Assembly (NCBI GenBank): GCA_015233495.1 | Contig: JADFXQ010000006.1 | Coordinates: 1-59,858 of the forward strand | DNA from: Candidatus Omnitrophota bacterium | GTDB lineage: Bacteria > Omnitrophota > Gorgyraeia > Zapsychrales > Zapsychraceae | DNA length: 59,858 bases | Reading direction: 5' to 3' | Shown here: positions 36,439-58,239 of the stretch, piece by piece | Numbering within the stretch: position 1 is the stretch's first letter | How the letters are laid out: every line of letters begins with the position of its first letter | Program-made: the position numbers and the translations under genes | Notes under the pieces: generated by a model | What the model saw: the letters and a program-made list of their open reading frames with translations, nothing else | Told to the model about the DNA's origin: nothing | Databases searched by the model: none

Positions 36439-37053
36439 ATGAAAACAAAAAAAACAACGAACGCCTGGAAAGTGCGGATTCAAAATTTTGTCGGTCGCGA
36501 GCCGGTTTTAGCCGCGGGGATTGTCATTTTCGCGCTGATTACCTTTTTTTGGGTATTGTCTTCCTTGGAATTGATTCCGGAACGGGCACAGCGCGTTACT
36601 GCGCCCAACGGAACGGTCTTTGAACCCGGCGACAGTGTGCAATGGATCGGGATGGATGTGATTCCTCTTACCCGGACAATCCGCAAGGAATTTAAAATTC
36701 CCGGCAAGATCAAAGGGATGTTTGTCCAAAACGAAGGCAAAGATTTGGCGCAAAGGTACGGGGTGAAGACCGGCGATATTTTAGTTTCGATCGGGCGCAA
36801 ATCAGTCGCTACTCAGAAAACTTTTGTTAATGTCGCCAACAATGTGAAATATTCGGACGGGATTTTGCTGGAGATCTTCCGCGACGGAAAAATATTTTAT
36901 TTGACGATTCCTTTTGAATATCAGTACGGGCCGCTTTTGGGCCCGAATAAAGGCAGCTGGCAGTTGGGATCGCCGGTTTTTGGACAGGCGTTTCCTTATG
37001 GGCCGGTGTTCCCGGGAAATAATCCGGGTAATAATCAGCAAAATAGACGATAG
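36439..37053 (+). CDS. TM-PDZ protein resembling MamE C-terminal part (mamE-Cter-like)
   Basis: QWIGMDVIPLT PDZ start, GVKTGDIL, GPNKGSWQL tail. Confidence 0.6.
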   Translation: MKTKKTTNAWKVRIQNFVGREPVLAAGIVIFALITFFWVLSSLELIPERAQRVTAPNGTVFEPGDSVQWIGMDVIPLTRTIRKEFKIPGKIKGMFVQNEGKDLAQRYGVKTGDILVSIGRKSVATQKTFVNVANNVKYSDGILLEIFRDGKIFYLTIPFEYQYGPLLGPNKGSWQLGSPVFGQAFPYGPVFPGNNPGNNQQNRR

Positions 37054-37072
37054 CAATCTTAAAGGGGTTTCT

Positions 37073-38932: not shown

Positions 38933-40105
38933 GTGGCTGACAAACTTATCAAATATCGCAAACAAAGCCGGCAGAAATTTTTTCTGGTTTTGGCAGTGTT
39001 TTTTCTCGGGCTGCTTTTTGTGGCGGCCTTGATGCACATCGGGGCGGGAGACGCGGAATGGGGCGGGATGTCGGTGAGCAATGTTTCTGCGGCCAACGCG
39101 ATGGAATTCAATATTCCGAAAGACGAAAAAGGCGTAGTGGTCAACTGGTGCGAGGACCCTGCTTATTCTTCGGGTGTGCGCAGCGGCGATCTTTTGAAAG
39201 CCGTCAACAATCAGAAGATTAAAAATTTAGCGGACTTTTTAAAAGTGACCAAGCAAACCGAGTTAAGTCAAGGCGCGTTGTTGGACGTTTTGCGCAATGG
39301 CCAGCCGATTTACATCACCATGGAAAATAAATTGGGTCTGCATGACAGTATCAAGAAGAGTTTGAACATGGATATGGGCGTGACAGGAAAAAACCCGGCT
39401 GCCGCTCCACCGGCTGCAGCCAAAAGCGGCTCCACCGCGGGCGGACCGGGACAGTTAGCCGCGTTCGCTAACCGATCGCCGGCGGAAACCGCGGAAGCCG
39501 GAGTGGGACAGCCGGCGCCAGCGCCGTTGAATACGCAATTGCCAACCCCAAAACAACAGGGAGCGGCGAAAAAAGATTTGATTGAAGGTCATTGGTTGGG
39601 CATGGAGTTGATCCCGCTCACTCCGGAATTAGCGACTGAATATAAAGTCCCGCCGGATACAAAAGGTTTGTTGGTTGATGAGATTTGTTTGGAATCCGCG
39701 GAATCGGGTATTTTGGCGGGTGACATGGTAGTGGGCGTGGATGGGGTGGCGACTCCGGATTTGGTCGCTTTTACGGAAGCGACGCGCCGGGTCAAAAACC
39801 GCGACAGCGCTAAGATCACGGTTTCCCGGCGGGGGCGTATTCTGGATTTTAAGATTTCTTCTGAACGCACTTTGGGGTTTTCGCAGAATGAAGCGGCTCA
39901 GCCGATCGCGCCGGGCGCGATCAGCCCGCATCGCAGCCGCAATAAACCGTGCACCTCTTGTCATATAATTATGGTGACGGGCGGACAACTGCCGACGGAC
40001 GCGGGAGATATTTTACCGAACCCGCCTCCGATCACCAAGGGCGCGGTGGCGCCGCACGAATATCGCGGCAAATGCAAGAACTGTCACGTGATATTAAAAA
40101 AATGA
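38933..40105 (+). CDS. mamP: magnetosome protein MamP (TM, two PDZ, two magnetochromes)
   Basis: EGHWLGMELIP; PH..KPCTSCH and PHEYRGKCKNCH. Confidence 0.88.
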   Translation: MADKLIKYRKQSRQKFFLVLAVFFLGLLFVAALMHIGAGDAEWGGMSVSNVSAANAMEFNIPKDEKGVVVNWCEDPAYSSGVRSGDLLKAVNNQKIKNLADFLKVTKQTELSQGALLDVLRNGQPIYITMENKLGLHDSIKKSLNMDMGVTGKNPAAAPPAAAKSGSTAGGPGQLAAFANRSPAETAEAGVGQPAPAPLNTQLPTPKQQGAAKKDLIEGHWLGMELIPLTPELATEYKVPPDTKGLLVDEICLESAESGILAGDMVVGVDGVATPDLVAFTEATRRVKNRDSAKITVSRRGRILDFKISSERTLGFSQNEAAQPIAPGAISPHRSRNKPCTSCHIIMVTGGQLPTDAGDILPNPPPITKGAVAPHEYRGKCKNCHVILKK

Positions 40106-41417: not shown

Positions 41418-42500
41418 ATGACTTTAGTCGTCCTAGGGATAAATCATAAGACAGCGCCGCTGGATATTCGGGAGCGGTACAGTTTTCCGGACAACGCCTT
41501 GGAGGGGTATTATCGCGGGTTATTAGCGGGCGGCCCAATCCGTGAAGCTATGATTTTGTCAACCTGCAACCGGGTGGAAATTTACGGCGTGGGAGAGGAC
41601 GCGGTTCAAGTCGTTGACCGGTTGGTAGAATTTTTAAATGATATTCAATTAATCGCCCCGGAATTTTTGCGGCAATATTTTTATCGGAAAACCGGAGAAG
41701 CGGCGCTAGGTCATTTTTTCCGCGTGGCCAGCGGGTTGGATTCGATGTTAATCGGCGAGCCGCAGATTCTGGGCCAGATTAAACGGGCGTATGAAAAGGC
41801 TTTGGCTGCGGGCGCGGTTGGTTCGGGGTTGCACGCGGTGATTCAGGATGGCCTGCGGATCGGCAAGAAAGTCCGAAATCATACCGGCATTACCCGCGGG
41901 GTAACTTCCTTATCCGGGGTGGTAATCGATTTGATCAAGCGCGAACCCGGGCTGAATCAGAAAAAGATTTTGGTCATCGGCGCGGGAAAGATCGGCGCCA
42001 CTACCGTCGGGAAATTAGCGGAAATGGCGGTTCAAGAAATAGTTTTGACAAACCGGGATATTGCCCGGGCGGCGCAATTGGCGCGTCAACCCAATTGGCG
42101 GGTGGCGGAATTTGTTGATCTGCCGCGGGAAGTCGCGGCCGCGGATATAGTGGTTGCGGCCACCACTGCGCCGCATTTGATCAACCGCTCGATGCTGGAA
42201 TACATTTGTCAAGGTCGGCAAAAGGAACTGCTGCTGATCGATTTGGGCGTGCCGCGCAACATTGACGCCGCCGCGCGGGCCATGTCGGGTGTGCGGCTTT
42301 ATAACATTGACGATTTGGCTCCGGTGATTGAACAAACTATCCGCGACCGGGCGGTGGAAGCGCGTAAAGCACAAGCGATTGTCAGCCGGGAGATCTTGGC
42401 CGCTCGACGGCAAACAAGCAACCCGGCGCGAGGCGCGGCCGGTATTGCCGCGGCGCCAGCAGGGGAAAAATTTTTATGCGAACTCTCGTTTTCGGGATAA
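41418..42500 (+). CDS. hemA: glutamyl-tRNA reductase, C-terminally short
   Basis: STCNRVEIY, GEPQILGQ, GAGKIG, DLGVPRNID. Confidence 0.93.
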   Translation: MTLVVLGINHKTAPLDIRERYSFPDNALEGYYRGLLAGGPIREAMILSTCNRVEIYGVGEDAVQVVDRLVEFLNDIQLIAPEFLRQYFYRKTGEAALGHFFRVASGLDSMLIGEPQILGQIKRAYEKALAAGAVGSGLHAVIQDGLRIGKKVRNHTGITRGVTSLSGVVIDLIKREPGLNQKKILVIGAGKIGATTVGKLAEMAVQEIVLTNRDIARAAQLARQPNWRVAEFVDLPREVAAADIVVAATTAPHLINRSMLEYICQGRQKELLLIDLGVPRNIDAAARAMSGVRLYNIDDLAPVIEQTIRDRAVEARKAQAIVSREILAARRQTSNPARGAAGIAAAPAGEKFLCELSFSG

Positions 42501-43351
42501 GAAAAAGCGCTTTGGCGCGGGTACAGCTCGAAGAGTTCATCGCTTTTTTGGCGCAGCAAAATTTTATTTTTGACTACTGCGTGAAAACGATTGCCACCGC
42601 CGGGGACCAGGACAAAAAGACTCCGCTGGATAAAATGGGCCGGGGGATTTTTACGAAGACGATCGAAGCCGCGCTTTTGCGCGGAGAAATCGATTGCGCG
42701 GTCCACAGTTTGAAAGATATGCCGGCGGAACTTGAACCCGGAACGGCTTTGTCTTGTTTCCCGCCGCGGCAAGACAGCCGCGATTGTTTGGTTGTCCGGC
42801 CGGGAGTGGCGCCGGAGCATTTGGCGGGATTACGGATCGGCACAGGCAGTCCGCGGCGCGCCGCTTTTTTAAAAGAGCTGGAAAGTACCGCGCAAGCTTT
42901 GCCAGTCCGCGGAAACGTTGAAACGCGGCTGCGCAAGTTGGACAAAGGCGATTATGATGGTTTGATTTTGGCGGCTGCCGGGTTAAAACGTCTCGGTTAC
43001 GCGGGACGCGTTGCTCGGTATTTTGATCCGGAAATTTTTGTTCCACCGGCCGGGCAAGGGATTATTTGCGGCCAAACCCGCGGCAGGGACATTGAATTGA
43101 ACCAAGCGTTACGCGCGTGTTCTTGCGCCGCGACCGGAAAAGCGGCCCAGGCGGAACGGAAAATTTTAACGGTTTTAAACATCGGCTGCCAAGTGCCTTT
43201 TGGGGTGTATGCCCGGTTTGACGCAGAACAATTTTGCATAACCGCCCGGGGATTTACGGCGGCAAAACAGGCCTTGGTGAGCAAAAAGCAAGTTGTCCCG
43301 GCGGCGCAGTGGGAAGCGGCGGTAGATAAATTGATAAACGCTTTAAAGTGA
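42476..43351 (+). CDS. hemC: hydroxymethylbilane synthase
   Basis: RKSALA, AVHSLKDMP, GTGSPRR, RGNVETRL. Confidence 0.95.
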   Translation: MRTLVFGIRKSALARVQLEEFIAFLAQQNFIFDYCVKTIATAGDQDKKTPLDKMGRGIFTKTIEAALLRGEIDCAVHSLKDMPAELEPGTALSCFPPRQDSRDCLVVRPGVAPEHLAGLRIGTGSPRRAAFLKELESTAQALPVRGNVETRLRKLDKGDYDGLILAAAGLKRLGYAGRVARYFDPEIFVPPAGQGIICGQTRGRDIELNQALRACSCAATGKAAQAERKILTVLNIGCQVPFGVYARFDAEQFCITARGFTAAKQALVSKKQVVPAAQWEAAVDKLINALK

Positions 43352-43473
43352 ATGACCAATGACAAAATTCAAAATTCAAAAATCCAAACATACAGCTTGG
43401 AATTTTTTGTTTTACGCCAGGGATTTTAAAATTTGAATTTATTTTGAATTTGGCGATTTATCATTCGAATTTT
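43351..43473. repeat. 7-bp-period AT-rich hairpin element
   Basis: aatgacc aatgaca aaattca aaattca aaaatcc arm and complementary tttgaattt..ttttgaattt arm at 43432-43451. Confidence 0.65.
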
Positions 43474-43479
43474 ATAAAA

Positions 43480-44988
43480 ATGTTAAAGGCGCAGAAACCA
43501 GCGAAAGTGTATTTGGTCGGCGCGGGTCCGGGGGATCCGGGCCTGATGACAGTTAAGGCTTTGGAATGCGTTAAGCAAGCGGACGTGATTCTTTATGACC
43601 GGCTGATCAGTCCGGAGATTTTAAAGCAGGGCAAAGCCGGCGCGGTTTTAAAATATGTAGGCAAAGCCAAGGGCGAATCGGTTGATCAGGCAAAGATCAA
43701 CCAAACAATTTTATCCTATGCCCGCGCCGGAAAAACCGTTGTCCGATTAAAAGGCGGCGATCCGTTTATTTTTGGCCGGGGACAGGAAGAGGCGTTCTTT
43801 CTCAATAATCAGGGTATTGCCTGCGCCGTGATTCCGGGCGTGAGTTCTTTTTACGCCGTGCCGGAGGTTTGCGGGATTCCGCTTACCTATCGGGGCATCG
43901 CGAGTCAATTTATGGTGTTGACCGGGCATGAAGACCCGGCAAAGCAAACCCCAGGCATTGACTGGCGGCACGCCGGACGGTTTCAGGGGACGATTGTTGT
44001 AATGATGGGGTTGTCGAATCTCGGTAAAATTACCAGCCGGCTGATGGCGGCCGGCAAAAGCGGCGATACCCCGGCTGCGGTAATCGCCAGCGGCACCACG
44101 CGCCGGGAAAAAATCGTGATATCCCGACTATCGGATATCGCGGCCAAGACTAAAAATTTTACCGCGCCGGCGATTTGCGTGATCGGCGGGGTTGTAAAAA
44201 TGGCTTATGGGATCAATGACCGGCTCAGGCCTTTGGCCGGCAAACGGTATTTGTCGACAGCGAGCGAAGCGTTGGGCGCGGATATTGTGCGCCAATTAAA
44301 ACGGTTGGGCGCGGCCGTGAGTTTACTGCCGATGATTCATATCGTCGCGAATCCGGATACTGCGGTCTTGGACCGGATCATCACGCAGGTAAAAACTTTT
44401 GATTGGCTGGTGTTTACGTCGCGGCACGGGGTGGATTATTTTCTAAAGCGTTATTTTGAGTTGGGCGCGAATCCGGCGCATTTAGCCGGACGCATTGCCT
44501 GTGTGGGTTGCGGCACTGCCGCGGAATTCGCGAAACACGGGATGGCCGCGGATCTGATGCCCGAAGAATTTACGACGCGAAATCTGGGTTTGGCGCTCGC
44601 AGCTCAAGGGATAGCCGGCAAACGGGTGGCTTTGTTACGCACGCCTTTAGCGCAGGATGTTTTAAAGAAAATTTTGCTTAAAGCCGGAGCGGTTATAACG
44701 GATTGCGCGGTTTATCACGTGGAAAATGTCGGGTATTCCGGGCCGCGGTTGGCCCCAGCTGTAAAAAAACTCGACGGAATATTTTTCTTGAGTCCGCAAG
44801 CTGTGCGGGTGTTTTTTGCGACGGTTCCGCCCGAGAGCCAAGCAGCGCTGAAACAAAAAGCGGCGTTTTATTCTATTGGCCCGGTGACTACCCGGATGTT
44901 GAAAAAAATAGGGGCCCGCGATATTCGTGCCGCGGCAGAGCACACGGTAAACGGCATGGTTGATCGGTGTTTAAAGGACATTGTCTGA
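43480..44988 (+). CDS. cobA-hemD: uroporphyrinogen-III C-methyltransferase / synthase fusion (CobA-HemD)
   Basis: GAGPGDP, RLKGGDPFIFGRG; HemD half DWLVFTSRHGV, SIGPVT. Confidence 0.93.
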   Translation: MLKAQKPAKVYLVGAGPGDPGLMTVKALECVKQADVILYDRLISPEILKQGKAGAVLKYVGKAKGESVDQAKINQTILSYARAGKTVVRLKGGDPFIFGRGQEEAFFLNNQGIACAVIPGVSSFYAVPEVCGIPLTYRGIASQFMVLTGHEDPAKQTPGIDWRHAGRFQGTIVVMMGLSNLGKITSRLMAAGKSGDTPAAVIASGTTRREKIVISRLSDIAAKTKNFTAPAICVIGGVVKMAYGINDRLRPLAGKRYLSTASEALGADIVRQLKRLGAAVSLLPMIHIVANPDTAVLDRIITQVKTFDWLVFTSRHGVDYFLKRYFELGANPAHLAGRIACVGCGTAAEFAKHGMAADLMPEEFTTRNLGLALAAQGIAGKRVALLRTPLAQDVLKKILLKAGAVITDCAVYHVENVGYSGPRLAPAVKKLDGIFFLSPQAVRVFFATVPPESQAALKQKAAFYSIGPVTTRMLKKIGARDIRAAAEHTVNGMVDRCLKDIV

Positions 44989-46139
44989 TGATTTCTTGCT
45001 CGAAAATATTCAAAGGCGAACGCACGGAACACACTCAGCGTAAAAAGGGACCGCTGTTCGTCTGGAATGTCACCAGTCGCTGCAATTTGCAGTGCGGTCA
45101 TTGTTATCGGGATGCTTCTTCGGGAAACGGCGCCGATGATTTGACCGACCAAAATTGCCTGAATTTTATCCGCGAGATTAAGGAGCTCAACCCGCCGATC
45201 GTGCTGTTGACCGGCGGCGAGCCGCTGTTGCGCGGAAATATTTTTGACATTATCCGGGTTTGCCGGGATGAAGGTTTATCCGTAGGATTGTCCACCAACG
45301 GCACGCTGATCAATCCGGACATGGCGAAAAAAATTCAGGACGCGGGAGTGAGTTATGTCGGGATCAGCATTGACGGGAATAAGGAAGCGCATGACCGGTT
45401 CCGCCGCGCCGACGGGTCATGGGAAGCCAGTTGGCAAGGGATTGAATCTTTAAACAAGCACGGCGTGAAAACCGGAGTGCGGTTTACCTTGACTGCGGCT
45501 AACCGTCACGATCTTAATGCGGTTTTAGCCAAGACCGTGATCAGCGGCACGAAACGATTCTGCTTGTATCATTTGGTTTACGCCGGCCGCGCCGCGGCTG
45601 AACAGGACATGACGGTGGAAGAAAAACGGCTGTGCATGGAAGGGTTTTTTAAAAAAATCCGGGAAATTTTAGCGGTCGATCCGGAGTTTGATGTTTTGAC
45701 CACAGACAGTCCGGCGGACGGCGTGTTTATGCTCGGCATGGTCAACAATAAAAAAGACGCTTTGGCGTGTATTACCTCGCATAAGGGATGTTCAGCGGGC
45801 GACCGGGTCGTTTATATCGATTCCAACGGCGATGTTTTTCCCTGCCAGTTTTTACGGGAATATCCGCTGGGGAATATTTTAGAAGAACCGCTCATTGAAA
45901 TTTGGCAAAATACGCGCAACGATTTATTGTTGCAGTTGCGCGATAAACAAAGTTACGTCGAAGGCAAATGCGGGATTTGCCGGCATAAACATATTTGCGG
46001 CGGATGCCGGGCTAGGGCCCAAGCGTATCATGGTTCTTTATGGGCGGAAGACCCGGGATGCTATTTGACCGAAGGGGAAGTGACTCCGCAATTTTTGCGT
46101 CGGCCCAGGAAAACTGAGAAGCAGGTTGTCGGAGTATAG
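44988..46139 (+). CDS. ahbC: radical SAM/SPASM Fe-coproporphyrin synthase
   Basis: WNVTSRCNLQCGHC, SPASM Cys, CGGCRARA; TGATG overlap. Confidence 0.8.
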   Translation: MISCSKIFKGERTEHTQRKKGPLFVWNVTSRCNLQCGHCYRDASSGNGADDLTDQNCLNFIREIKELNPPIVLLTGGEPLLRGNIFDIIRVCRDEGLSVGLSTNGTLINPDMAKKIQDAGVSYVGISIDGNKEAHDRFRRADGSWEASWQGIESLNKHGVKTGVRFTLTAANRHDLNAVLAKTVISGTKRFCLYHLVYAGRAAAEQDMTVEEKRLCMEGFFKKIREILAVDPEFDVLTTDSPADGVFMLGMVNNKKDALACITSHKGCSAGDRVVYIDSNGDVFPCQFLREYPLGNILEEPLIEIWQNTRNDLLLQLRDKQSYVEGKCGICRHKHICGGCRARAQAYHGSLWAEDPGCYLTEGEVTPQFLRRPRKTEKQVVGV

Positions 46140-46155
46140 AATTAAGGTGATGGAT

Positions 46156-47142
46156 ATGATTTTTGAAAATTCGCGACTCGCCAGATTAAGACAAAGCTCG
46201 AATATAAGGGATTTGGTTCGCGAAACCCGGCTGCATAAAAGCGATTTGATCATGCCTCTGTTTTTTAAAGAGGGGAAAGGGACACAATCGGTCCCTGCTT
46301 TGCCTGGCGTAGCCAAAATGTCCCGGGAGGTTTTATTAAGGGAAGCGGAGGCCTTGCAAAAGTTGGGGATCAAGGCGGTGTTGTTGTTTGGCTCGGCTTC
46401 GGCCAAAGACGCGGTTGGCTCATCCAGCTATGCCGCAGACGGCCCGTTTCAACAAACGATCCGGGCGATTAAAAAAGCGAGCGATATTGTTCTGATCACG
46501 GATGTGTGTTTGTGCGCGTATACCACGCATGGTCATTGCGGAATTGTCGCTCACTCTGGGGCAAAAAATAGGACGCCGTTTAGGTTGGATTCCGGCCGGA
46601 CCTTGGCGGCCTTAGCGAAGATCGCGGTTTCTCACGCTCAGGCTGGCGCGGATATTGTGGCGCCTTCCGCTATGGCGGACGGTCAGGTCGCGGCCATCCG
46701 TCAGGCATTGGACAAGGCGGGTTTGGACACGACCGCGATTTTGAGTTACGCGGTAAAATATGCTTCGAGTTTTTATGGGCCGTTTCGGGATATCTACGAT
46801 TCGTCTCCGGCCCAAGGCGATCGGCGTGGTTATCAAATGGATCCGGCCAATGGACGGGAAGCATTAGCGGAAGCGGCTTTGGATGTGGCCCAAGGCGCGG
46901 ATATGGTCATGGTCAAACCCGCTTTGGCGTATTTGGATATAATTCAAGCTGTTCGGGCAGCTGTCTATGTTCCGGTTGCGGCTTATAATGTGAGCGGCGA
47001 ATACGCAATGGTCAAGGCGGCGCATGCTCAAGGTTGGCTGGATGAAAAGTCCGCGGCCTGGGAGATTTTGAATTCCATCAAACGGGCTGGCGCGGATTTG
47101 ATCATAACGTATTGGGCGAAAGAGGCGGCGCAATGGATTTGA
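46156..47142 (+). CDS. hemB: porphobilinogen synthase, Zn-type
   Basis: DVCLCAYTTHGHC, SAMADG, MVMVKPA; start uncertain (46150 or 46156). Confidence 0.95.
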   Translation: MIFENSRLARLRQSSNIRDLVRETRLHKSDLIMPLFFKEGKGTQSVPALPGVAKMSREVLLREAEALQKLGIKAVLLFGSASAKDAVGSSSYAADGPFQQTIRAIKKASDIVLITDVCLCAYTTHGHCGIVAHSGAKNRTPFRLDSGRTLAALAKIAVSHAQAGADIVAPSAMADGQVAAIRQALDKAGLDTTAILSYAVKYASSFYGPFRDIYDSSPAQGDRRGYQMDPANGREALAEAALDVAQGADMVMVKPALAYLDIIQAVRAAVYVPVAAYNVSGEYAMVKAAHAQGWLDEKSAAWEILNSIKRAGADLIITYWAKEAAQWI

Positions 47143-48131
47143 CGCCGCGGATGATTTTTTGGGAAACGACAAAACGTTGTAATTTGCATTGTGGTTATTG
47201 CCGTCGGTTGACGGCGCCAGCGGACCAGGAATTGACTACTCCCGAAGCGTTGCGGCTGATCGAGGTGATCCGCGCCAATTTTGGCAAACCGGTTTTGGTG
47301 TTAAGCGGCGGCGAGCCTTTATTGCGGGAAGATATTTTTGACATCATGGCCCACGCGGCCCGGATGGGTTTGCCTTTGGCTTTAGCGACGAACGGTTTGC
47401 GGCTGGAAGAAAAAGAAGCGGTATGGTTGCGGCAATCTGGGGTCAAGCGGGTGAGCTTGAGTTTTGATTCGGTGGACAGCGGCACGCATGACCGGTCGCG
47501 CGGTTTGCCCGGCGCTTTTGAGAAAACCAAAGCTGCCGCAGCTTTTTTGCAAGCACACGCGGTTCCGTTTCAGATAAACTTCACCCTTACGAAAAAGAAT
47601 CGGGGGGAAGTTCGGGCGGTCGCGGATTTTGGCCAAACGCTCGGCGCGGTGGGGGTGCATTATTTTGTGCTCGTGCCCGTGGGCTGCGGCAAAACCGTTC
47701 GGCCGGCCGATATGCTCGACGGTGAGGAAGCGGAAGATGTTTTGACGCGGATTCGGGCTTTGGCGGCGGAGTATGCGCTGGACATCCGGCCGACCTGCAG
47801 TCCGCAATATGTTCGGTTAGGCGATCCGCATTTTGCGAAGGGTTGTTTGGCAGGCACGGGAGTGGTTTTTATATCGTCGGAGGGAAAGGTTTATCCTTGC
47901 GGATATTTACCGGTTTCGGCCGGGTCGATCCGTGAAAACTCGCTCCTTGACATTTGGAAGAACGCGGCGGTTTTTCAGACCTTGCGCCAGAACGACCTAA
48001 AAGGCGGATGCGGAGTTTGCGCTTGGAAAAACCAATGCCGCGGCTGCCGCGCCCGGGCCTATGGCGTGACTGGCGATTATATGGCCAGCGACGTGACGTG
48101 TTGTTTGGCCCCGGGGGTTGCGGTTTCATGA
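47133..48131 (+). CDS. ahbD: radical SAM/SPASM heme b synthase
   Basis: IFWETTKRCNLHCGYC, GCLAGTG, CRGCRARAY. Confidence 0.78.
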   Translation: MDLTPRMIFWETTKRCNLHCGYCRRLTAPADQELTTPEALRLIEVIRANFGKPVLVLSGGEPLLREDIFDIMAHAARMGLPLALATNGLRLEEKEAVWLRQSGVKRVSLSFDSVDSGTHDRSRGLPGAFEKTKAAAAFLQAHAVPFQINFTLTKKNRGEVRAVADFGQTLGAVGVHYFVLVPVGCGKTVRPADMLDGEEAEDVLTRIRALAAEYALDIRPTCSPQYVRLGDPHFAKGCLAGTGVVFISSEGKVYPCGYLPVSAGSIRENSLLDIWKNAAVFQTLRQNDLKGGCGVCAWKNQCRGCRARAYGVTGDYMASDVTCCLAPGVAVS

Positions 48132-48595
48132 AAACACGCTATTGTCTGGACGAAAATATGAACCGTCTGATGCTTGCGCTGCAGGCAGGCTTGCCGATCG
48201 CGGCGCGGCCTTACCAGGATTTGGCCGCCGATTTCGGGGTCAGCGAAACGGAGATTCTCCGCCGGCTCGTCTGGTTAAAAAAACAAGGCCTGCTCAAACG
48301 GATCAATTTCAGTTTTGATTTGAGCAAGCTGGGTGTGGTCAGCGCCTTGGTCGGCTGCCGGATTGCCGGCCCGGATATGGGCCGCGCGGCCAAAATCATC
48401 GCGGCTTGCGGCCAGGTTACCCACAATTACGCGCGGCGGCATCGGCTCAATATGTGGTTTACAATCAGCGCGGCATCGCCGCGGCGGCTTAAGGAAATTT
48501 TAACCCGGCTCAACAGCGCTTTGCCTGCTGAGGAAACCGTTGTGTTGTCTACGGAAAAAATTTATAAGTTGAGGTTTCGCTTCCATGCTGGGTAA
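48128..48595 (+). CDS. ahbA: siroheme decarboxylase alpha subunit
   Basis: LQAGLPIAARPY, VTHNYARR..NMWFT (Lrp/AsnC-like fold). Confidence 0.82.
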   Translation: MKTRYCLDENMNRLMLALQAGLPIAARPYQDLAADFGVSETEILRRLVWLKKQGLLKRINFSFDLSKLGVVSALVGCRIAGPDMGRAAKIIAACGQVTHNYARRHRLNMWFTISAASPRRLKEILTRLNSALPAEETVVLSTEKIYKLRFRFHAG

Positions 48596-49073
48596 ACGCG
48601 AGAAAGATGTGTTGATTTATTTTTCCCGGCAAGACGCGGCTTTGTGCTCCCGGCCGTTTAAAAAAGCCGCGGTAAAATTGGGCTTGACGGAAAACCGTTT
48701 ATTAGCGGTACTGCGGGATTTACAAGCAAAAGGCGTGATTAAAAATTTGCGCGGAGTCATTGATCACCGCCAAGCGGGATACCGGACCAATGCCTTGATT
48801 GCTTGGAATACGCGGGGACTGCGGCCCGCGGAAAAGGACGATTTCATTCAGGCGCGGTTGGTGAGCGACGAGCGGATATCGCATTGTTATCAACGCCAAT
48901 CGCAGCCGGGGTTTGATTACGATGTTTTTGCCATGCTGCACGCGAAATCCGCGGCGGAAGTCAAGCGGTTTGTCCGGGAAACCACCCGGCAAAAAAAGAT
49001 AGCGCATGAAATTTTATTCACGGAACAAGAATTGAAAAAAGAAAAAATGTCATTTAAGGATTTGCTGGAATGA
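48585..49073 (+). CDS. ahbB: siroheme decarboxylase beta subunit
   Basis: HRQAGYRTNALIAW, ISHCYQR, FAMLHA, ELKK. Confidence 0.85.
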   Translation: MLGKREKDVLIYFSRQDAALCSRPFKKAAVKLGLTENRLLAVLRDLQAKGVIKNLRGVIDHRQAGYRTNALIAWNTRGLRPAEKDDFIQARLVSDERISHCYQRQSQPGFDYDVFAMLHAKSAAEVKRFVRETTRQKKIAHEILFTEQELKKEKMSFKDLLE

Positions 49074-50359
49074 TTTTTAAACAGTCGGCGCGTTGGCGCG
49101 GCCGCGGCGTTCGCTCGCTCGTCGGAGCGGTTAATTCGCCGGTTCGCAGTTTTGCGGCGGTGGAATCGCCGATGCTCTTCGCGGCCAAAGCCGGCGGTCC
49201 GTATTTATGGGACGCGGACGGCAATAAATATATCGATTACATCATGAGCTGGGGCGTGGGCATCTTGGGCCACGCTTATCCGCCGGTTGTCGCGGCAGCG
49301 GTCCGGGCCATGAAACACGGCGCGAGTTTTGGCTTGGCCACGGCAGGAGAAATCCGCTTAGCCGAAAAGCTCAAACGGCATATAAAGAGCCTGGACAAAG
49401 TGCGGTTTGTCACGTCGGGCACTGAGGCGTGCATGACCGCGGTCCGGCTCAGCCGGGCCTTTACGGGCAAGACCAAAATTCTTAAGTTCGACGGAGCGTA
49501 CCACGGGCACTTTGACAGTTTGTTGGTGAAAAGCGGGTCCGGCAATTTGACGTTAGGTCTTCCGTCGGGCAAAGGGATCTTGCCCGCGTATACCCGGGAC
49601 ACGTTGTCCTTGCCGTTTAATGATATCGGGATGTTGAAAGCGGCCATCGCCCGCAACCGCGGTGAAATCGCCGCGGTGATTGTCGAACCCGTGGCGTGCA
49701 ACGCCGGCGTGATTTTACCGCAAGGTGATTTTTTAAAATACCTGCGCCGGATGACTAAGGAAGCCGGGATGGTTTTGATCTTTGACGAGGTGATCACCGG
49801 TTTCCGTTTAGGGTTAGGCGGAGCGCAAAAAGTTTTTGGCGCGGAGCCCGATTTAACGTGTCTGGGCAAAATTATCGGCGGCGGGTTTCCGGTTGGCGCG
49901 GTTGGCGGCCGGCGGGAAATTATGGATTTATTGGCCCCGGTTGGCCCGGTTTATCAAGCCGGCACGCTCGCCGGCAATCCGGTAGCGATAGCCGCCGGTT
50001 TGCAGACTTTAGAATGTTTGGAAGCGTCCGCTTCCTTATATAAGGATTTGGAGACCAAAACCTTCCGGCTGGCGGCCGGAATACGGCAAGCGGCGGCGGC
50101 CGCGGGTGTCGCGTTGAAGGTGAATACGATCGGCTCTTTGTTTTCATTATTTTTTACGGACCAACCCGTCACGTCTTACGCGGCGGCATTGACTACGGAT
50201 AAAGCCCGTTATGCCCGTTGGTTTTCCGGTCTTTGCCGGGCAGGGATTCTTTTTCCGCCTTCGGCGTTTGAGGCGTGTTTTGTTTCAGCCGGTCACACGG
50301 ATGCGGTGATAGAAAAAACCGTAAAGGGCTTAACAAGAGTTTTGGAGTCCGGCATTTGA
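49070..50359 (+). CDS. hemL: glutamate-1-semialdehyde 2,1-aminomutase
   Basis: GAVNSPVR, SGTEACM, FDEVITGFR, GKIIGGG, YQAGTLAGNP. Confidence 0.96.
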   Translation: MIFKQSARWRGRGVRSLVGAVNSPVRSFAAVESPMLFAAKAGGPYLWDADGNKYIDYIMSWGVGILGHAYPPVVAAAVRAMKHGASFGLATAGEIRLAEKLKRHIKSLDKVRFVTSGTEACMTAVRLSRAFTGKTKILKFDGAYHGHFDSLLVKSGSGNLTLGLPSGKGILPAYTRDTLSLPFNDIGMLKAAIARNRGEIAAVIVEPVACNAGVILPQGDFLKYLRRMTKEAGMVLIFDEVITGFRLGLGGAQKVFGAEPDLTCLGKIIGGGFPVGAVGGRREIMDLLAPVGPVYQAGTLAGNPVAIAAGLQTLECLEASASLYKDLETKTFRLAAGIRQAAAAAGVALKVNTIGSLFSLFFTDQPVTSYAAALTTDKARYARWFSGLCRAGILFPPSAFEACFVSAGHTDAVIEKTVKGLTRVLESGI

Positions 50360-52732: not shown

Positions 52733-53542
52733 ATGGAAGAACGAAAAAAGAATAAGATCACTGATGATAAAGTCGCCGGGGAATTAGAAACGGATACCGC
52801 CGAAGACCGCGAAACAGCGGAATCCGCCGGGAACGGCGCGCCAGAAACCAAAGTCAAACGGACGCGCAAGCCCAAGAAGAGCAAAGAGGAAAATTTGAAA
52901 GACAATATCACTCAAAAAATCCAGCTCGGCACGCACCGGATGTTGTCGACAACCGAGCGGATCATTCAGGGATTGTCGAATGCTTATGAGAACATTTTCA
53001 TCGGCAAGGAAGACGTGAAAAAGGATTTTGAAAAAGAGCAGGGGATCAAATTTTACAATAAAGGCAATTATGAACGCGCCTTGGAGCATTTTGACGCGTA
53101 TCTGCAAGACGTGGATGGCCAGGACGCGGATGTTTTGTATCTGATGGCCATGTGTCAGGTCCACCAGGGCGATCACAAAGCTGCGGCGGTTGATTTGAAA
53201 AAAGCGGAAAAATTGAGTCCCGAGGATGAGGACATCATCATGGAATCCGCCAAATGCCTTTTCGCGCTGGAAAATTACAGCGAGGCGTTGGCGTATTTGA
53301 AAAAAGCGACCGCGATTATTCCCGACGACGCGGATGTCTATTATCATCTCGGCACCTGTTACGAAAAGCTCGACCAGATCGAAGACGCGAAAAAGAATTA
53401 TAAAAAGGCGATTGATTTGAGTCCGCGGGAAGCGGTTTATTATCACGCTTTGGGTTTTGTCTACGAAAATTCCGGCAATCATAAAGACGCCATTGTCTGT
53501 TTTAAAAAAGCGATGGATTTGGAACGCGAAAAAAAGACGTAA
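52733..53542 (+). CDS. mamA: magnetosome TPR protein MamA
   Basis: Tandem TPRs (GIKFYNKGNYERAL, YYHLGTCY, YHALGFVY); low-complexity N-terminus; mam context. Confidence 0.75.
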   Translation: MEERKKNKITDDKVAGELETDTAEDRETAESAGNGAPETKVKRTRKPKKSKEENLKDNITQKIQLGTHRMLSTTERIIQGLSNAYENIFIGKEDVKKDFEKEQGIKFYNKGNYERALEHFDAYLQDVDGQDADVLYLMAMCQVHQGDHKAAAVDLKKAEKLSPEDEDIIMESAKCLFALENYSEALAYLKKATAIIPDDADVYYHLGTCYEKLDQIEDAKKNYKKAIDLSPREAVYYHALGFVYENSGNHKDAIVCFKKAMDLEREKKT

Positions 53543-53591
53543 CCCCGGCAGATTCCGGATCTGCCGCGGTCGTTGCGGGAGGGAGCGCCAC

Positions 53592-54308
53592 ATGAGCCGT
53601 ATCACTGAAACTATTAAGAAAATGTTTCCTAAGGAATTTGAAGAATTGATCCCGATCAGGAAACCTTGGTGGGAAAAAATTGATTTCGCCCAATTACAGA
53701 GCAAAGAAGGTCTCTGGGTTTCTTTAGCGATCGGCGTGGTAATTCTCGGCGGGATTTATTATTACAATAAGCTCATCGCGATTTACCGTTTCACGGAAAT
53801 GGAAAGCCATCAGATCGAAGTGCAGTTGCAGCGGCGCAAAGATTTGTCCGCAAATTTGGTGAAAACGGTTATGGATTATGCCGAGCATGAACGGCAGATG
53901 TTCCAATATATGGCCGACAAACGGGCGGAAGCTTTGAAGACTAATGATCTGACAAAAACCCCGCTGGATGCGAAAGGCTTGATTGACCCCAAAGCTCTGG
54001 CGGAGATAAAAAATTTAAAGGGAGTGAATTTGGATAAAGCCCTGGCGAAAATCATGGCTTTGGCGGAAGCATATCCGCAGTTGAAGTTGAGCGAAAACTT
54101 CCAGATTTTGATGCAGGGATTGATCAAGACGGAAGACAACATCGCGGACCGCCGCATGGCTTACAATGAAGCGGCGAGCAATTATCACGCTTATGTGAAG
54201 CAGATCCCGGCGTGTTTTTACGCTTATATTTTTGGCTACCGGGAAAAAATGTTCCATTACGCGGAAGTGGACCCGGATATTAAGAAATTCAATCCGATTG
54301 CTTATTAA
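53592..54308 (+). CDS. mamQ: magnetosome LemA-family protein MamQ
   Basis: YYNKL, LQRRKDL, AEAYPQLK.SENF, RMAYN; start moved to ATG 53592. Confidence 0.82.
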   Translation: MSRITETIKKMFPKEFEELIPIRKPWWEKIDFAQLQSKEGLWVSLAIGVVILGGIYYYNKLIAIYRFTEMESHQIEVQLQRRKDLSANLVKTVMDYAEHERQMFQYMADKRAEALKTNDLTKTPLDAKGLIDPKALAEIKNLKGVNLDKALAKIMALAEAYPQLKLSENFQILMQGLIKTEDNIADRRMAYNEAASNYHAYVKQIPACFYAYIFGYREKMFHYAEVDPDIKKFNPIAY

Positions 54309-54318
54309 GGGGAGAACT

Positions 54319-56130
54319 ATGGCGCTGACCAAACAAAAAATGGCGCGGTTGCAACCGACAAAACGCTGGGCATCGTTTCCGTTGGTGGAATCGGCGATCG
54401 CTCTGATCGTGATCATCATGCTCGCGGCCTTATTTTTCGACAGCCGCAATATGCCCCCCCAGGGAGCGTCGCGCGTGGCCCAATCCAGCGGCGGCAGCGC
54501 ATTGGAATTTGATGTCATCACGGTCAATCCGATCATCGCGAAGGATTTCAGTTTGCCGTACGCTTCCGGCGTTTTGGTCAACAGCGCTCCCACCGGCGCG
54601 GCCCGCAAGTTGATTGATATCCGGCGCGGCGACGTGATTTTGCAATACAATCAGGTCAATGTCGAGTCAGCCAACCATTTCGCCTATTTGATGTCGCAGA
54701 GCAAGCCCGGAGACAACATCAGTTTTGTCATCTCGCGCAACGGCAAATCCCTGACAGTCAGCGGCAAAATTCCCGTCGAGACCGGGCTGGATATATTTGG
54801 CGCCAACGGCATGGCGGTCTTTGTGACCTTGGTCATTATTCTTATTACATTCACGGCCCTGTTCCTGAATTTGTTTGACCGCACCATCTGCGTGACCTTA
54901 GGCGCGGTGCTGATGTTGGTCGCGGGTTCGATGCTGGGATTTTACCGGCAAAGCGAGGCCTTTGATTCGATCCGGATGAGCCCGATTTTCGTGTTGATCG
55001 GCATGAGTATTTTTGCCCTATTTTTGGAAAACTTGCGCTATTTTGATTATGTGGCCAAACGCTTGGTCCTTGCCATGCAGGGGGATAAGATCAAGATCAT
55101 TTTCGCTTTGTGCATATTGACCGCGGTCGCCTCGGCGTTTATGAATAATATTTCGATCATTTTGATCATTGTCCCGATCACGATTTACGTAGCCAAGGGG
55201 TTGAATTTTGACCCGATTCCGGTGGTGATTGCCGAAGTCATTTCTTCGGCGGTCGGCGGCAATATGACGCCGATCGGCGATTTTTCCAATATGCTGATCG
55301 CGACCAGCGCCGGTCTAACTTTTATCGATTTCCTCTTATTCATGGGGCCGATTTGCGCGATTTGTCTGGCCGCGTTTCTGGGTTATATGTGGTATTTTGA
55401 ATTTCGCCATATTAAACAGCCCCGGTCGCAGAGCATTGAGAAGGCTTTTTTGAAGAAACTCGAAACTGAAATCGAAGCGATGCGTTTGGATTGGCCGGCG
55501 ATTAAACGGGTTTTGTATGTTTTAGGATCCGTAATCGCGGCGTTTATCATTTTGCCGTTTTTTAAAATTCATCTCGCGCCGATCGCCTTAGGCGGCGGGT
55601 TTATCCTGCTGGCGCTCGAGAATCAAAAAGCGAAAGAGATCATCAAAAAAATCAGCCTCACGGATATTTTGTTTTTTATTTCTTTGTTTTTAATCGTCGG
55701 CGGCGCGCTTTATTCCGGGTTGTTAAAAATTCTTTCCGATATCCTCATCGCTTTATCCATGGGCAATCAAGTCGCGTATCTGATTTTAATGATGTGGACG
55801 ATGGCCTTGTTCACCGCGTTTATGAACGCCGGGCCGGCCACGGCGTTTTTCATCCCGATTATCATAAGCTCGGGTTATGCGGATTTTACCGACGTGATCT
55901 GGTGGGCGTTGAACCTCGGATCGATCGCCGGTTCCTGCGCGTGTATTACGGGCGCCAGCGCCGGGATCATATCCCAAACGCTCGTCGAGGAACATTATCC
56001 GATCCGGGCGGGCGATAAGGATAAGGAAGGCTTGACTTTCGCGAGTTACAGCCGCCGGGGAATTCCGACGGCGATCGGATTTTTGATTTTGTCTTCTATT
56101 TATATTGTCATATTAAGTATGATTCCTTAA
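54319..56130 (+). CDS. mamN: PDZ domain fused to MamN-like ArsB/NhaD-superfamily transporter (603 aa)
   Basis: TM, PDZ (GVLVNS, IRRGDVIL), then SAFMNN, GGNMTPIGDFSN, GSCACITGASAG. Confidence 0.65.
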   Translation: MALTKQKMARLQPTKRWASFPLVESAIALIVIIMLAALFFDSRNMPPQGASRVAQSSGGSALEFDVITVNPIIAKDFSLPYASGVLVNSAPTGAARKLIDIRRGDVILQYNQVNVESANHFAYLMSQSKPGDNISFVISRNGKSLTVSGKIPVETGLDIFGANGMAVFVTLVIILITFTALFLNLFDRTICVTLGAVLMLVAGSMLGFYRQSEAFDSIRMSPIFVLIGMSIFALFLENLRYFDYVAKRLVLAMQGDKIKIIFALCILTAVASAFMNNISIILIIVPITIYVAKGLNFDPIPVVIAEVISSAVGGNMTPIGDFSNMLIATSAGLTFIDFLLFMGPICAICLAAFLGYMWYFEFRHIKQPRSQSIEKAFLKKLETEIEAMRLDWPAIKRVLYVLGSVIAAFIILPFFKIHLAPIALGGGFILLALENQKAKEIIKKISLTDILFFISLFLIVGGALYSGLLKILSDILIALSMGNQVAYLILMMWTMALFTAFMNAGPATAFFIPIIISSGYADFTDVIWWALNLGSIAGSCACITGASAGIISQTLVEEHYPIRAGDKDKEGLTFASYSRRGIPTAIGFLILSSIYIVILSMIP

Positions 56131-56136
56131 AGAAAG

Positions 56137-57120
56137 ATGACTATGAAAAATAATAATCTGAAGACGCATGATTGGATCGGTTATGCCAATATCGCGTTGG
56201 GTTTGATCGTGGCGATTTTTGCTCTGATCGCGATGTTTAGTTCTCCTACGGCGAAACTGCAGCTGCCAGTCCCGATTCCCCCCAGCGTGGCGGTGGATCA
56301 GCCGATCTGGCTTTTGGCCTTGATCGGATTCGCGATCGGTTGTTATGGCACGATCGTCGGCATCGGCGGCGGTCCGTTGATTCTGCCGATTTTGGTTTTT
56401 TTCTATGGGTGGGAAAATGAATTTCTGGTTGCCACATCGTTGTTCATTGTGCTTTTGAATGCCGGCTCTGGCTGTCTGGGTTATGCCATGCAAAAACGCA
56501 TCGATTACAAAGGCGGCATCAAGTTTACGCTCGCCGCGATGCCCGGCGCTTTCATCTCCAGCTATATTCATCACTTAGTCAATCTGACGTTTTTTAATCT
56601 GATTTTCGGCGTATTTTTGATTTTTCTCGCCGGGTATACTTTGGTCAGCATGGGGAGGATCGACAAAACCACGGAAGAAAAACAGAAAAATCTCAAAGAA
56701 GCGAAAGCCCAAGGATTCCGCCGCGTCCGGTTTATTGATAATTTCAAAATCTCCTATGATTTTTACGCCAATGATAAAATGGGCATTTCTATGAATTTGA
56801 TGCTGGGATTTTTTTGCGGATTTTTGGGCATTGGCGGCGGGGTTTTTCAAGTCCCGATTTTGCTTTTTCTTCTGAATTATCCGACGCATATCGCGACCGC
56901 GACGAGCCATTTTGTCACCCTGATGACCTGCGCGATCGCCATTTTGCCGCATGTGTTTCTCGGCAATTTCATGTATGGGGAAGCGATGTGGATGGGGTTT
57001 GGCGTGATCGTCGGCGCGCAAGTCGGCGCGCGGCTTGCCGCGAAACTGAACACCAAAGTCACGCTGTATTTATTCATTATTATTTTGATCGTGTTTGCGG
57101 TCAAATTGTTTTTTGTTTAA
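56137..57120 (+). CDS. mamO: TauE/SafE-family membrane protein, MamO C-terminal type
   Basis: GIGGGPLILP and GIGGGVFQVP repeats, GAQVGARL; no protease domain. Confidence 0.7.
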   Translation: MTMKNNNLKTHDWIGYANIALGLIVAIFALIAMFSSPTAKLQLPVPIPPSVAVDQPIWLLALIGFAIGCYGTIVGIGGGPLILPILVFFYGWENEFLVATSLFIVLLNAGSGCLGYAMQKRIDYKGGIKFTLAAMPGAFISSYIHHLVNLTFFNLIFGVFLIFLAGYTLVSMGRIDKTTEEKQKNLKEAKAQGFRRVRFIDNFKISYDFYANDKMGISMNLMLGFFCGFLGIGGGVFQVPILLFLLNYPTHIATATSHFVTLMTCAIAILPHVFLGNFMYGEAMWMGFGVIVGAQVGARLAAKLNTKVTLYLFIIILIVFAVKLFFV

Positions 57121-57154: not shown

Positions 57155-57315
57155 TGAGGAGAGAAAATTTTTGTGGCCCTGAACCCGGCGGTGATTTGCC
57201 CGGGCGATGGAAAGTAGAGAGGAGAGAGGCGGCCGCAATGGTTGGATTGGCCGCTGATTTCTCGGGTCTCGGATTTCCATTGCTTTGGCCTTTTTTGTCG
57301 TCGACGAAAAAGGCC

Positions 57316-57326
57316 GGGGGGGGGGG
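57316..57326 (+). repeat. G11 homopolymer tract next to a ggccttttt/aaaaaggcc hairpin
   Basis: Direct reading. Confidence 0.8.
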
Positions 57327-57373
57327 TAGAAACCCTGTCCGCACAAACACGGACTCATGAAAAGGAGAAGGGC

Positions 57374-57553
57374 ATGGAATTTTTATTCACCGCTTTCGTC
57401 GCTATTTTTGACATTGTCGCCATTGTTGACATTCTCCGGGGCGGGTTGCCCGTCGAGAAAAAATTTCTCTGGATAGCCTTGGTGTTTATTGTTCCGGTTG
57501 TCGGGTTCATGCTTTATTTTTTGTTAGGCAAGACGGAACAGCCGGCCGCGTAA
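57374..57553 (+). CDS. PLDc_N-like small two-TM protein (59 aa)
   Basis: AIVDIL..KFLWIALVFIVPVVGFMLYFLLG; AAGGAG RBS; start moved to ATG 57374. Confidence 0.7.
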   Translation: MEFLFTAFVAIFDIVAIVDILRGGLPVEKKFLWIALVFIVPVVGFMLYFLLGKTEQPAA

Positions 57554-57681: not shown

Positions 57682-58239
57682 ATGAAAAAAGAAACTATGA
57701 TCGCGTTGTGCGGCTTGGTGTTTATCGCCTTGCTGGTAGTCGCTCTGTTCAACCACAAAGATGCGCAGGTCGCGGTTGATGAAACTTTGCATGAGATCAA
57801 GACCGCGGATGCCTGGCAGCAGTCCGCGCACGCTCCGTGTCCGGTGGGAGGACCAGGTTCCGCTTCGCCTTATTCGGGCCCGAATCAGCCGGTCGCGCTC
57901 AACGGCGCGCCGCCGATTCTGGCGGGGCAAGAAAAACCGGCGCTGATCAAACAAATGGGCGCGGAAGTGCTGCAAGTCGGCGGCGGCAAAGTCAAGATCA
58001 CCGGCGTAATGGGCAGTTCCTGGGCGGACAAAGCGGGATTAAAGGCGAATGATATTTTGCTTTCGTTTAATGGAAAAAAAATAACCAGTTTGCAGCAGTT
58101 TCAAGATTTGACTCTGAGCGCTCCGCCGGAAAAAGAATATAAGGTGACTTATTTGCGCGGCGGCCGGCTAAAGAAAGCTCTGCTGATGATCGGGGAAGGG
58201 GAAATGGAAGGATTTACGCCCATTCCGCAACCGAAGTAA
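57682..58239 (+). CDS. TM-PDZ protein, MamP-like but heme-less
   Basis: TM, APPILAG segment, GVMGSSWADKAGLKANDIL PDZ; no CxxCH. Confidence 0.7.
   Translation: MKKETMIALCGLVFIALLVVALFNHKDAQVAVDETLHEIKTADAWQQSAHAPCPVGGPGSASPYSGPNQPVALNGAPPILAGQEKPALIKQMGAEVLQVGGGKVKITGVMGSSWADKAGLKANDILLSFNGKKITSLQQFQDLTLSAPPEKEYKVTYLRGGRLKKALLMIGEGEMEGFTPIPQPK

Follow-up and report, generated by a model that had tools for sequence, protein, structure and literature searches.

We analyzed a stretch of 59,858 nucleotides (nt) from a Candidatus Omnitrophota bacterium (contig JADFXQ010000006.1; called the window throughout) and focused on one open reading frame (ORF), P0001 (54319 to 56130, plus strand, 603 amino acids (aa) plus stop), which lies in a magnetosome gene cluster and encodes a transmembrane (TM) helix, an HtrA-type PDZ domain and a permease in one chain. 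P0001 is a real fusion, arising neither by chance nor from assembly, because independent assemblies yielded about 50 protein clusters (formed at 90% identity) that share its architecture. The fusion is a conserved variant that is widespread in non-proteobacterial magnetosome clusters, not a one-off. The permease is MamN-like, probably an orthologue of MamN in the wide sense and outside the NCBI equivalog family, as judged from its best NCBIfam family, phylogeny, motif signature, occurrence as a single gene and synteny. P0001 is probably the MamN-type secondary transporter of this Omnitrophota magnetosome cluster, with a lumenal PDZ domain serving as a docking module.

P0001 runs from the ATG at 54319 to the TAA at 56128-56130 on the plus strand, which also carries all features given below, as one open frame without internal stops. 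A Shine-Dalgarno GGAG (54311 to 54314, inside the GGGGAG at 54309-54314) was read from the sequence 4 nt 5' of the ATG. Position 54319 is the likely start because the orthologues share a 'MAL...' start at the same position; for the same reason an earlier TTG at 54232, present in the mechanically made ORF list, was considered an unlikely start. The protein begins with a Lys/Arg-rich tail predicted to be cytoplasmic (residues 1-21, five Lys/Arg by charge count; 54319 to 54381), followed by a signal-anchor helix called TM0 (residues 22-44 by hydropathy, helix 22-40 in the AlphaFold2 (AF2) model; 54382 to 54450) and the HtrA-type PDZ domain (residues 60-152; 54496 to 54774). A linker (residues 153-163; 54775 to 54807) of low confidence, with a predicted local distance difference test (pLDDT) value below 50 for residues 154-160, leads to the first helix of the 440-aa permease core (residues 164-603; 54808 to 56127). 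The core has the ArsB/NhaD/DASS elevator fold with two inverted repeats, between which lies a central loop with seven Lys/Arg (residues 361-391; 55399 to 55491), predicted to be cytoplasmic from the AF2 model and charge count.

On P0001 alone, the Pfam family PDZ_2 gave a marginal match, with 29.0 bits against a cut-off of 27 for this single sequence. The same domain was matched by positions 243-325 of the NCBIfam model degP_htrA_DO, and a profile built from 21 family members matched PDZ1 of DegP/DegQ with E-values of 1e-20 to 3e-23. In the alignment G104-D105, R140 and G142 are invariant, and AF2 folds the segment into a beta-rich domain with one long helix. Pfam and NCBIfam profiles matched no trypsin-like domain in P0001, and the sequence contains no CXXCH motif. 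An earlier reading of this DNA made from its letters alone (the sequence-only reading) had described an N-terminal TM helix, a PDZ domain, a multi-TM permease, a GGAG ribosome binding site and a single frame; all of these are present according to the ORF, hydropathy, Pfam and the family profile.

The permease was assigned by comparing family profiles and trees. In Pfam, residues 166-534 scored 172.5 bits with CitMHS (cut-off 31.9) and 42.9 bits with ArsB (cut-off 22.2). The best NCBIfam family for P0001 was NF040989, the MamN model, which aligned with positions 1-436 of 437 on residues 165-600 at 269.9 bits, followed in the same comparison by ArsB with 51.6 bits. Canonical MamN representatives reached 453-571 bits on the MamN model, and generic ArsB/NhaD relatives about 205 bits on the MamN and about 123 on the ArsB model. 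In a HMMER search covering 1.8 billion representatives, 216 were matched at E-values up to 1e-30. Core-domain trees split the MamN-like from the generic permeases with a support of 100 in FastTree, 100 in a quick posterior mean site frequency (PMSF) tree and 100/100 in a careful IQ-TREE PMSF tree of 78 rows (ultrafast bootstrap (UFBoot)/Shimodaira-Hasegawa-like approximate likelihood ratio test (SH-aLRT)). P0001 was placed in the MamN-like, magnetosome-associated clade within an Omnitrophota lineage, so that the call of a MamN-like transporter in the sequence-only reading, for which a phylogeny with MamN had been suggested, is borne out by tree, best NCBIfam match, motifs and synteny. A six-frame search of the source genome (2.1 Mb, 91% complete) found P0001 as its only MamN-like gene (271.1 bits on the MamN model), and the order of MamN followed by MamO/TauE is kept in Omnitrophota, in other phyla and in the canonical M-N-O-P-A-Q loci. 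The reading of P0001 as a generic permease was rejected on the basis of the MamN clade, motifs and synteny.

Four motifs separate the MamN-like from the generic rows, and P0001 has the MamN version of all of them. At the tip of hairpin 1 (N276-N277; 55144 to 55149) MamN-like proteins read xNNL(T/S/A), generic ones LDNVT and P0001 MNNIS. At the broken helix TM5 (residues 320-325; 55276 to 55293) the respective motifs are GDFPNM, GDPPNI and GDFSNM, at the tip of hairpin 2 (residues 502-506; 55822 to 55836) (L/M)NAGP, VDNIP and MNAGP, and in TM10 GSSA, GGNG and GSCA. In 19 of 20 generic rows an Asp is found at each hairpin tip, whereas P0001 has N276-N277 and N503-A504; Asn replaces both pseudo-symmetric Asp residues in all MamN-like proteins, canonical MamN included (55144-55149 and 55825-55827 of the window). 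The AF2 model of P0001, built with 40 homologues, has an overall pLDDT of 77 and a predicted template modelling score (pTM) of 0.69, with low confidence in the tail, the segment preceding the PDZ domain and the linker between PDZ domain and core. Its best Foldseek match was ArsB of Leptospirillum ferriphilum (10tp_A; E-value 9.5e-14, target-based template modelling score (TMt) 0.85, root mean square deviation (rmsd) 3.3 A), followed by SLC13/DASS elevator transporters (SLC13/VcINDY), and a DegQ chain matched the PDZ portion. Model and matches agree on a two-repeat hairpin fold of the permease core.

The distribution of the fusion was determined by several searches. An exact look-up of the P0001 protein gave no entry. 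A word-index search retrieved about 50 full-length TM-PDZ-permease clusters at 47-77% identity, nearly all from Omnitrophota metagenome-assembled genomes (MAGs), and these orthologues have the same architecture of 600-606 aa with a conserved linker. The possibility that an assembly or frame error merged two genes, for which no evidence was found, deserves practically no credence: the same plan of 600-606 aa is found in dozens of independent assemblies and one complete genome, the frame has no stops and the linker is conserved. The orthologues thus refute an assembly artefact, and this candidate was rejected. Among 401 sampled Omnitrophota species genomes, five carry the fusion, which fits the patchy spread of magnetosome clusters. 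A scan of named genomes with MamN-specific peptide patterns, which would overlook PDZ domains joined to generic permeases where no magnetosome cluster is present, identified as carriers many MAGs of magnetotactic bacteria (MTB) of Lin et al. 2020 (nDJH, nHLH, nS315) as well as Desulfobacterales, KSB1, Planctomycetota and others. The cultured Desulfamplus magnetovallimortis BW-1 has a PDZ-MamN-like protein of 628 aa (PDZ at 74-153, 332 bits on the MamN model). The BW-1 gene (L039 7782-9668, NZ_LT828540.1) lies beside MamB- and MamE-like genes, and this strain could be used for experiments.

Each fused gene for which sufficient flanking sequence was available adjoins MamM/B-like genes of the cation diffusion facilitator (CDF) type (a few short contigs had too little flank), usually with MamQ, MamA, TauE or MamE/MamP-like genes nearby; the generic ArsB/NhaD loci have none of these, and a PDZ domain was found in none of the 88 generic representatives among the best 150 of the 216 HMMER matches. 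Among the sampled loci, the PDZ fusion occurs only in magnetosome-type neighborhoods, which agrees with the expectation of the sequence-only reading that it should not be common in non-magnetotactic bacteria. The rarity that the same reading implied did not hold up, since many magnetosome clusters outside the Proteobacteria contain the fusion, that of the cultured BW-1 among them. Magnetosome-type neighborhoods were also seen in contigs that binning assigned to phyla without known magnetotaxis, namely L051 and L053 (Clostridia), L038 (Terriglobia), L058 (Bacteroidota) and L019 (Planctomycetales, 72% identical to P0001); mis-binning, lateral transfer or new carriers could account for them. The Omnitrophota MAG nDJH6bin5 (G327) has two PDZ-MamN copies on contigs L028 and L030, each in a magnetosome-type cluster.

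P0001, with a PDZ domain only, is the minimal form of the fused clade. In proteins from Elusimicrobiota (including NORP122) and Fibrobacteria, a MamP-like module, which consists of a PDZ and two to three CXXCH magnetochromes and scores 175-183 bits with the MamP profile, is followed by a PDZ domain and the MamN core. In proteins from Planctomycetota and from genomes binned as 'Clostridia', a trypsin-like domain precedes the PDZ domain and MamN-like core, and a Riflebacteria protein combines a trypsin-like domain with a MamN-like core in which a PDZ domain was not detected. The catalytic triad is broken in the trypsin-like relatives P0087, P0091, L046, L063, L087 and L053; Asp and Ser are lost in all such modules except P0097, in which Ser is kept and His and Asp are gone, and His is lost in all except perhaps one. 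The MamE-like proteases of the same clusters keep TNxHV and DxAV, and that of the window also GSSGG. The trypsin-like fusions are pseudoproteases of the MamO kind whose partner is MamN in place of TauE.

The relatives are also informative about the side of the membrane on which the PDZ domain resides. With helices taken from the AF2 model and the PDZ domain uncounted, P0001 has 22 Lys and Arg residues in loops assigned to the cytoplasm versus 5 in those outside; the means over 21 diverse family members are 19.7 and 5.4. Heme-carrying relatives start with one TM helix or with a signal peptide that looks cleavable, after which the chain passes through CXXCH heme motifs and a PDZ domain to the first core helix without a further hydrophobic stretch in between. 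C-type heme is attached only outside the cytoplasm. These exported modules enter the core without an intervening TM helix, and therefore the N-terminus of the core and the preceding PDZ domain should face the periplasm-derived lumen. From charge bias and relatives, the PDZ domain of P0001 is thus most likely lumenal/periplasmic and the N-tail cytoplasmic, in line with the lumenal placement that the sequence-only reading had thought probable. By our own reading of the DASS fold, such a PDZ-out topology would fit the pattern of VcINDY, in which an extra first helix puts the N-terminus inside. A cytoplasmic PDZ domain, which would bind cytoplasmic magnetosome proteins such as MamA or parts of the cytoskeleton in an inverted topology, would agree with the classical 12-TM model of ArsB, in which the N-terminus is cytoplasmic. 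We consider this very improbable in view of the charge bias of 22 versus 5 and the signal peptides and heme motifs directly before the core of the relatives; to our knowledge, moreover, all other magnetosome PDZ modules are lumenal.

For the function of the fusion we propose that the PDZ domain hangs in the magnetosome lumen on a short flexible linker before the first core helix, where it would act as a docking module that holds the transporter beside the lumenal protease and redox machinery of the MamE/MamP type, or beside the substrates of this machinery. Through docking, ion transport would be linked in space or by regulation with the nucleation of crystals and with the growth checkpoint that depends on MamE. 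A link of the PDZ domain to MamE/MamP-type modules is plausible because relatives carry MamP-like or MamO-like modules at the same site, and docking toward MamE/MamP is suggested by the nearest paralogue of the domain in the genome, which belongs to the MamE-like protease (33% identity), and by genetics in Magnetospirillum magneticum AMB-1. Magnetite formation in AMB-1 requires MamN, which also holds back membrane growth and the entry of Mms6/MamD; when MamN is lost, empty membranes grow beyond the checkpoint and Mms6/MamD arrive too early, and the authors propose that MamE might relieve the inhibition by MamN (PMC11332177; PMC8833152). MamN is described as a brake that acts 'via an unknown mechanism' in a checkpoint controlled by MamE/MamO (PMC11332177). 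The requirement of MamN for magnetite is known only from Magnetospirillum genetics (PMC11332177, PMC8833152, PMC3905215). The idea that MamN controls pH derives from its homology to Na+/H+ antiporters (PMC3905215, PMC9840458); proton export by P0001 would likewise be a homology-based guess, and caution is warranted because the Asp residues of both hairpin tips are gone across the MamN clade.

Several points weigh against this proposal. For P0001 as for every fused relative, docking is a proposal made from sequence, and the PDZ-out topology is a prediction. The AF2 confidence for the PDZ domain is only moderate, and the model says nothing about its placement. In the Omnitrophota group, A-L-E-F appears to replace the usual hydrophobic-Gly-hydrophobic carboxylate-binding loop of HtrA PDZ1. 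At 270 bits, P0001 stays below the equivalog cut-off of NF040989 (500 bits), and in the tree it falls outside the canonical MamN sub-clade of Proteobacteria/Nitrospinota, in a sister lineage. Finally, P0001 and its close relatives diverge at the putative substrate site, with GGNMT/GDFSNM versus GGAST/GDFPNM. Over residues 313-325 (55255-55293), P0001 and its closest relatives read GGNMTPIGDFSNM and the rest of the MamN-like clade GGASTMIGDFPNM, a change specific to the subclade.

Given the score below the cut-off and the position outside the canonical sub-clade, a function identical to that of canonical MamN is not assured for P0001. The same two facts, together with the changes at the putative binding site, speak for a permease that is not MamN in function and moves another substrate (an anion, metalloid or carboxylate), with likeness at the level of the family only. 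This appears improbable to us, as P0001 shares a 100/100 clade and a common motif signature with canonical MamN, is the single MamN-like gene of its genome and keeps the conserved position beside MamO/TauE.

The altered loop bears on what the PDZ domain may bind. The E-L-G-I loop of DegP aligns to A-L-E-F in P0001, an alignment that is uncertain for such a short loop, and KSB1-type relatives keep a carboxylate-binding loop W-(L/F)-G-A; classical binding of C-terminal peptides by the PDZ domain of P0001 may therefore be altered. The C-terminus of P0001 as a ligand of its own PDZ domain was considered and dropped, since the chain stops inside the last helix and leaves no free tail. Instead of docking, the PDZ domain could sense a lumenal ligand, such as a peptide end or the state of the crystal machinery, and switch the transporter, similar to the PDZ domains of DegS and MamE. 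It is of the HtrA PDZ1 type, PDZ domains of HtrA proteins are known as allosteric switches, as is that of MamE (PMC8833152), and the activity of MamN in AMB-1 appears conditional on the biomineralization state (PMC11332177). A gate of this kind has a minor yet appreciable chance in our estimate, its carboxylate-binding loop being apparently non-canonical and the domain being joined by the low-confidence linker to the first helix, which belongs to the static scaffold in DASS-type folds. Because the PDZ domain is tied to TM0 and the first core helix, on the side that would be static by analogy with DASS, docking seems weakly favored over direct gating.

Alternatively, the PDZ domain might be a remnant of a larger MamE/MamO/MamP-like fusion, or a structural or oligomerization module that serves insertion or dimerization without a specific partner. 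Longer modules (MamP-like, or a dead protease plus PDZ) occupy the same place in relatives, members of the Omnitrophota group seem to have a degenerate carboxylate-binding loop and PDZ domains are known to build the dimer of MamP. The PDZ domain is, however, well conserved across orthologues of 47-77% identity, with invariant structural residues, and the PDZ-only form is found in several separate lineages, which argues for selection on the PDZ domain itself and makes a mere remnant rather unlikely. With these alternatives considered, a link of the PDZ domain to MamE/MamP-type modules, to which the sequence-only reading had ascribed tethering or gating, is plausible from the fusion patterns of the relatives.

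Whether the fusion arose once or repeatedly was addressed with two trees. In the careful core tree the MamN-like crown (96/90) is a polytomy of several fused lineages (Omnitrophota, KSB1-like, Elusimicrobiota/Fibrobacterota/Planctomycetota and Desulfobacterota) and an unfused canonical/Bdellovibrionota lineage, and three long unfused rows branch below this crown. Parsimony of the fused state requires 4-5 changes on the core tree, where ORFs truncated at contig ends probably account for some of the 'unfused' rows (L054, L033). In a poorly resolved tree of PDZ domains alone (212 domains, 93 columns), the MamN-adjacent PDZs require 6 changes, of which the starred branches force only 1. Possibly, although we lean against it, the MamN-type transporter of early magnetosome evolution was one unit with an HtrA-derived lumenal module (a PDZ alone, a PDZ-magnetochrome module like MamP, or a dead protease plus PDZ like MamO), and the free MamN of Proteobacteria with 437 aa resulted from a secondary split. 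The trees are compatible with an early fusion that was later lost in Proteobacteria as well as with repeated fusion. If the ancestral unit existed, the fusions would act as a 'Rosetta stone' predicting that canonical MamN is in direct contact with MamE/MamO/MamP, and would offer a molecular starting point for explaining how MamN takes part in the checkpoint of membrane growth that depends on MamE and in Mms6/MamD sorting.

The magnetosome gene cluster of the window consists of two parts that flank a heme-biosynthesis operon. The first part contains a MamE-like HtrA protease of the active type with the motifs TNYHV, DLAV and GSSGG (34995 to 36419), PDZ proteins, a protein that combines a Nitro_FeMo-Co (NifX-like) domain with a magnetochrome motif (36914-38623) and a MamP-like protein with two PDZ domains and two magnetochrome motifs (38933 to 40105). 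The complete-looking heme operon (41418-50359) comprises hemA, a cobA/hemD fusion, two radical-SAM/SPASM genes, hemB and hemL, and lies between the halves of the cluster in the same layout at locus L007. In the second part, the order is MamM, MamB, MamA, MamQ, P0001, a stand-alone TauE permease, a PLDc_N mini-protein and a PDZ protein. Directly upstream of P0001, profile searches identified a MamQ-like LemA protein (53457 to 54308), and directly downstream lies the TauE permease (56137 to 57120), equivalent to the C-terminal half of MamO; the operon is tight around P0001, because the mamQ-like gene ends with its stop at 54306-54308 and the following gene begins at 56137. The small PLDc_N-domain membrane protein between the TauE and PDZ genes (57242-57553) is kept in the Omnitrophota clusters L005, L007, L017 and L022, and is followed by a small membrane-anchored PDZ protein (57682 to 58239). 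The cluster ends, partly past the window, with FeoB, a FecR-domain protein and a fusion of a DtxR-type repressor with FeoA (L003 2398-6260; contig C78 59397-63259); FeoB and DtxR/FeoA are also found at the cluster end in L007.

Magnetosome clusters of Omnitrophota are already published (Lin et al. 2018, PMC5955933; 2020, PMC7602337), and MamN is absent from the main text of both papers. NCBI labels the fused proteins as 'PDZ domain-containing protein' or 'SLC13 family permease'. We found no description of a PDZ-MamN fusion in the literature outside subscription, in which the only related remark is that 'MamN' of the Elusimicrobia NORP122 contains magnetochrome domains (Uzun et al., bioRxiv 10.1101/2022.07.08.499144). 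The fusion is thus essentially undiscussed in this literature. MamN is essential for magnetite in M. magneticum, and its conserved in-frame fusion to HtrA-type PDZ, MamP-like or dead-protease modules across many phyla provides independent genomic evidence for joint action with the lumenal machinery. The clade-wide exchange of Asp for Asn at both hairpin tips is a point against MamN as an ordinary antiporter of the Na+/H+ type and may bear on its substrate.

Compared with known systems, P0001 resembles canonical MamN (NF040989; Magnetospirillum, Magnetococcales and other Pseudomonadota) in its fold, its clade, its motifs of the NN, GDFPNM, NAGP and GSSA type and its location beside a MamO/TauE gene in a magnetosome cluster. 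It differs by an identity of about 33%, a separate sub-clade and a changed putative binding site, and canonical MamN, which we confirmed to be devoid of a PDZ domain as the sequence-only reading had stated for Magnetospirillum, is a single-domain protein of about 437 aa, whereas P0001 with 603 aa has 164 extra N-terminal residues comprising the TM helix and the PDZ domain. The closest match among transporters of known structure, L. ferriphilum ArsB (10tp), and the DASS/SLC13 proteins VcINDY, NaCT and NaS1 share the two inverted repeats and re-entrant hairpins with P0001, but are at most 19% identical to it and have neither a PDZ domain nor a magnetosome link. With MamE (HtrA protease, PDZ and magnetochrome) and MamP (a PDZ-magnetochrome iron oxidase) P0001 has the HtrA-type PDZ domain in common, but not the protease domain or CXXCH motifs. 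NORP122 'MamN' (P0229/L042) belongs to the same fused clade and likewise has extra lumenal domains, yet is 1011 aa long with a PDZ domain, two magnetochromes and a further PDZ domain, in contrast to the sole PDZ domain of P0001. MamO, finally, in which a degenerate trypsin-like domain is joined to TauE, is similar in that an HtrA-derived lumenal module is fused to a magnetosome transporter; in P0001 this module is only a PDZ domain and the transporter is of the MamN type, and TauE is encoded separately by the adjoining downstream gene.

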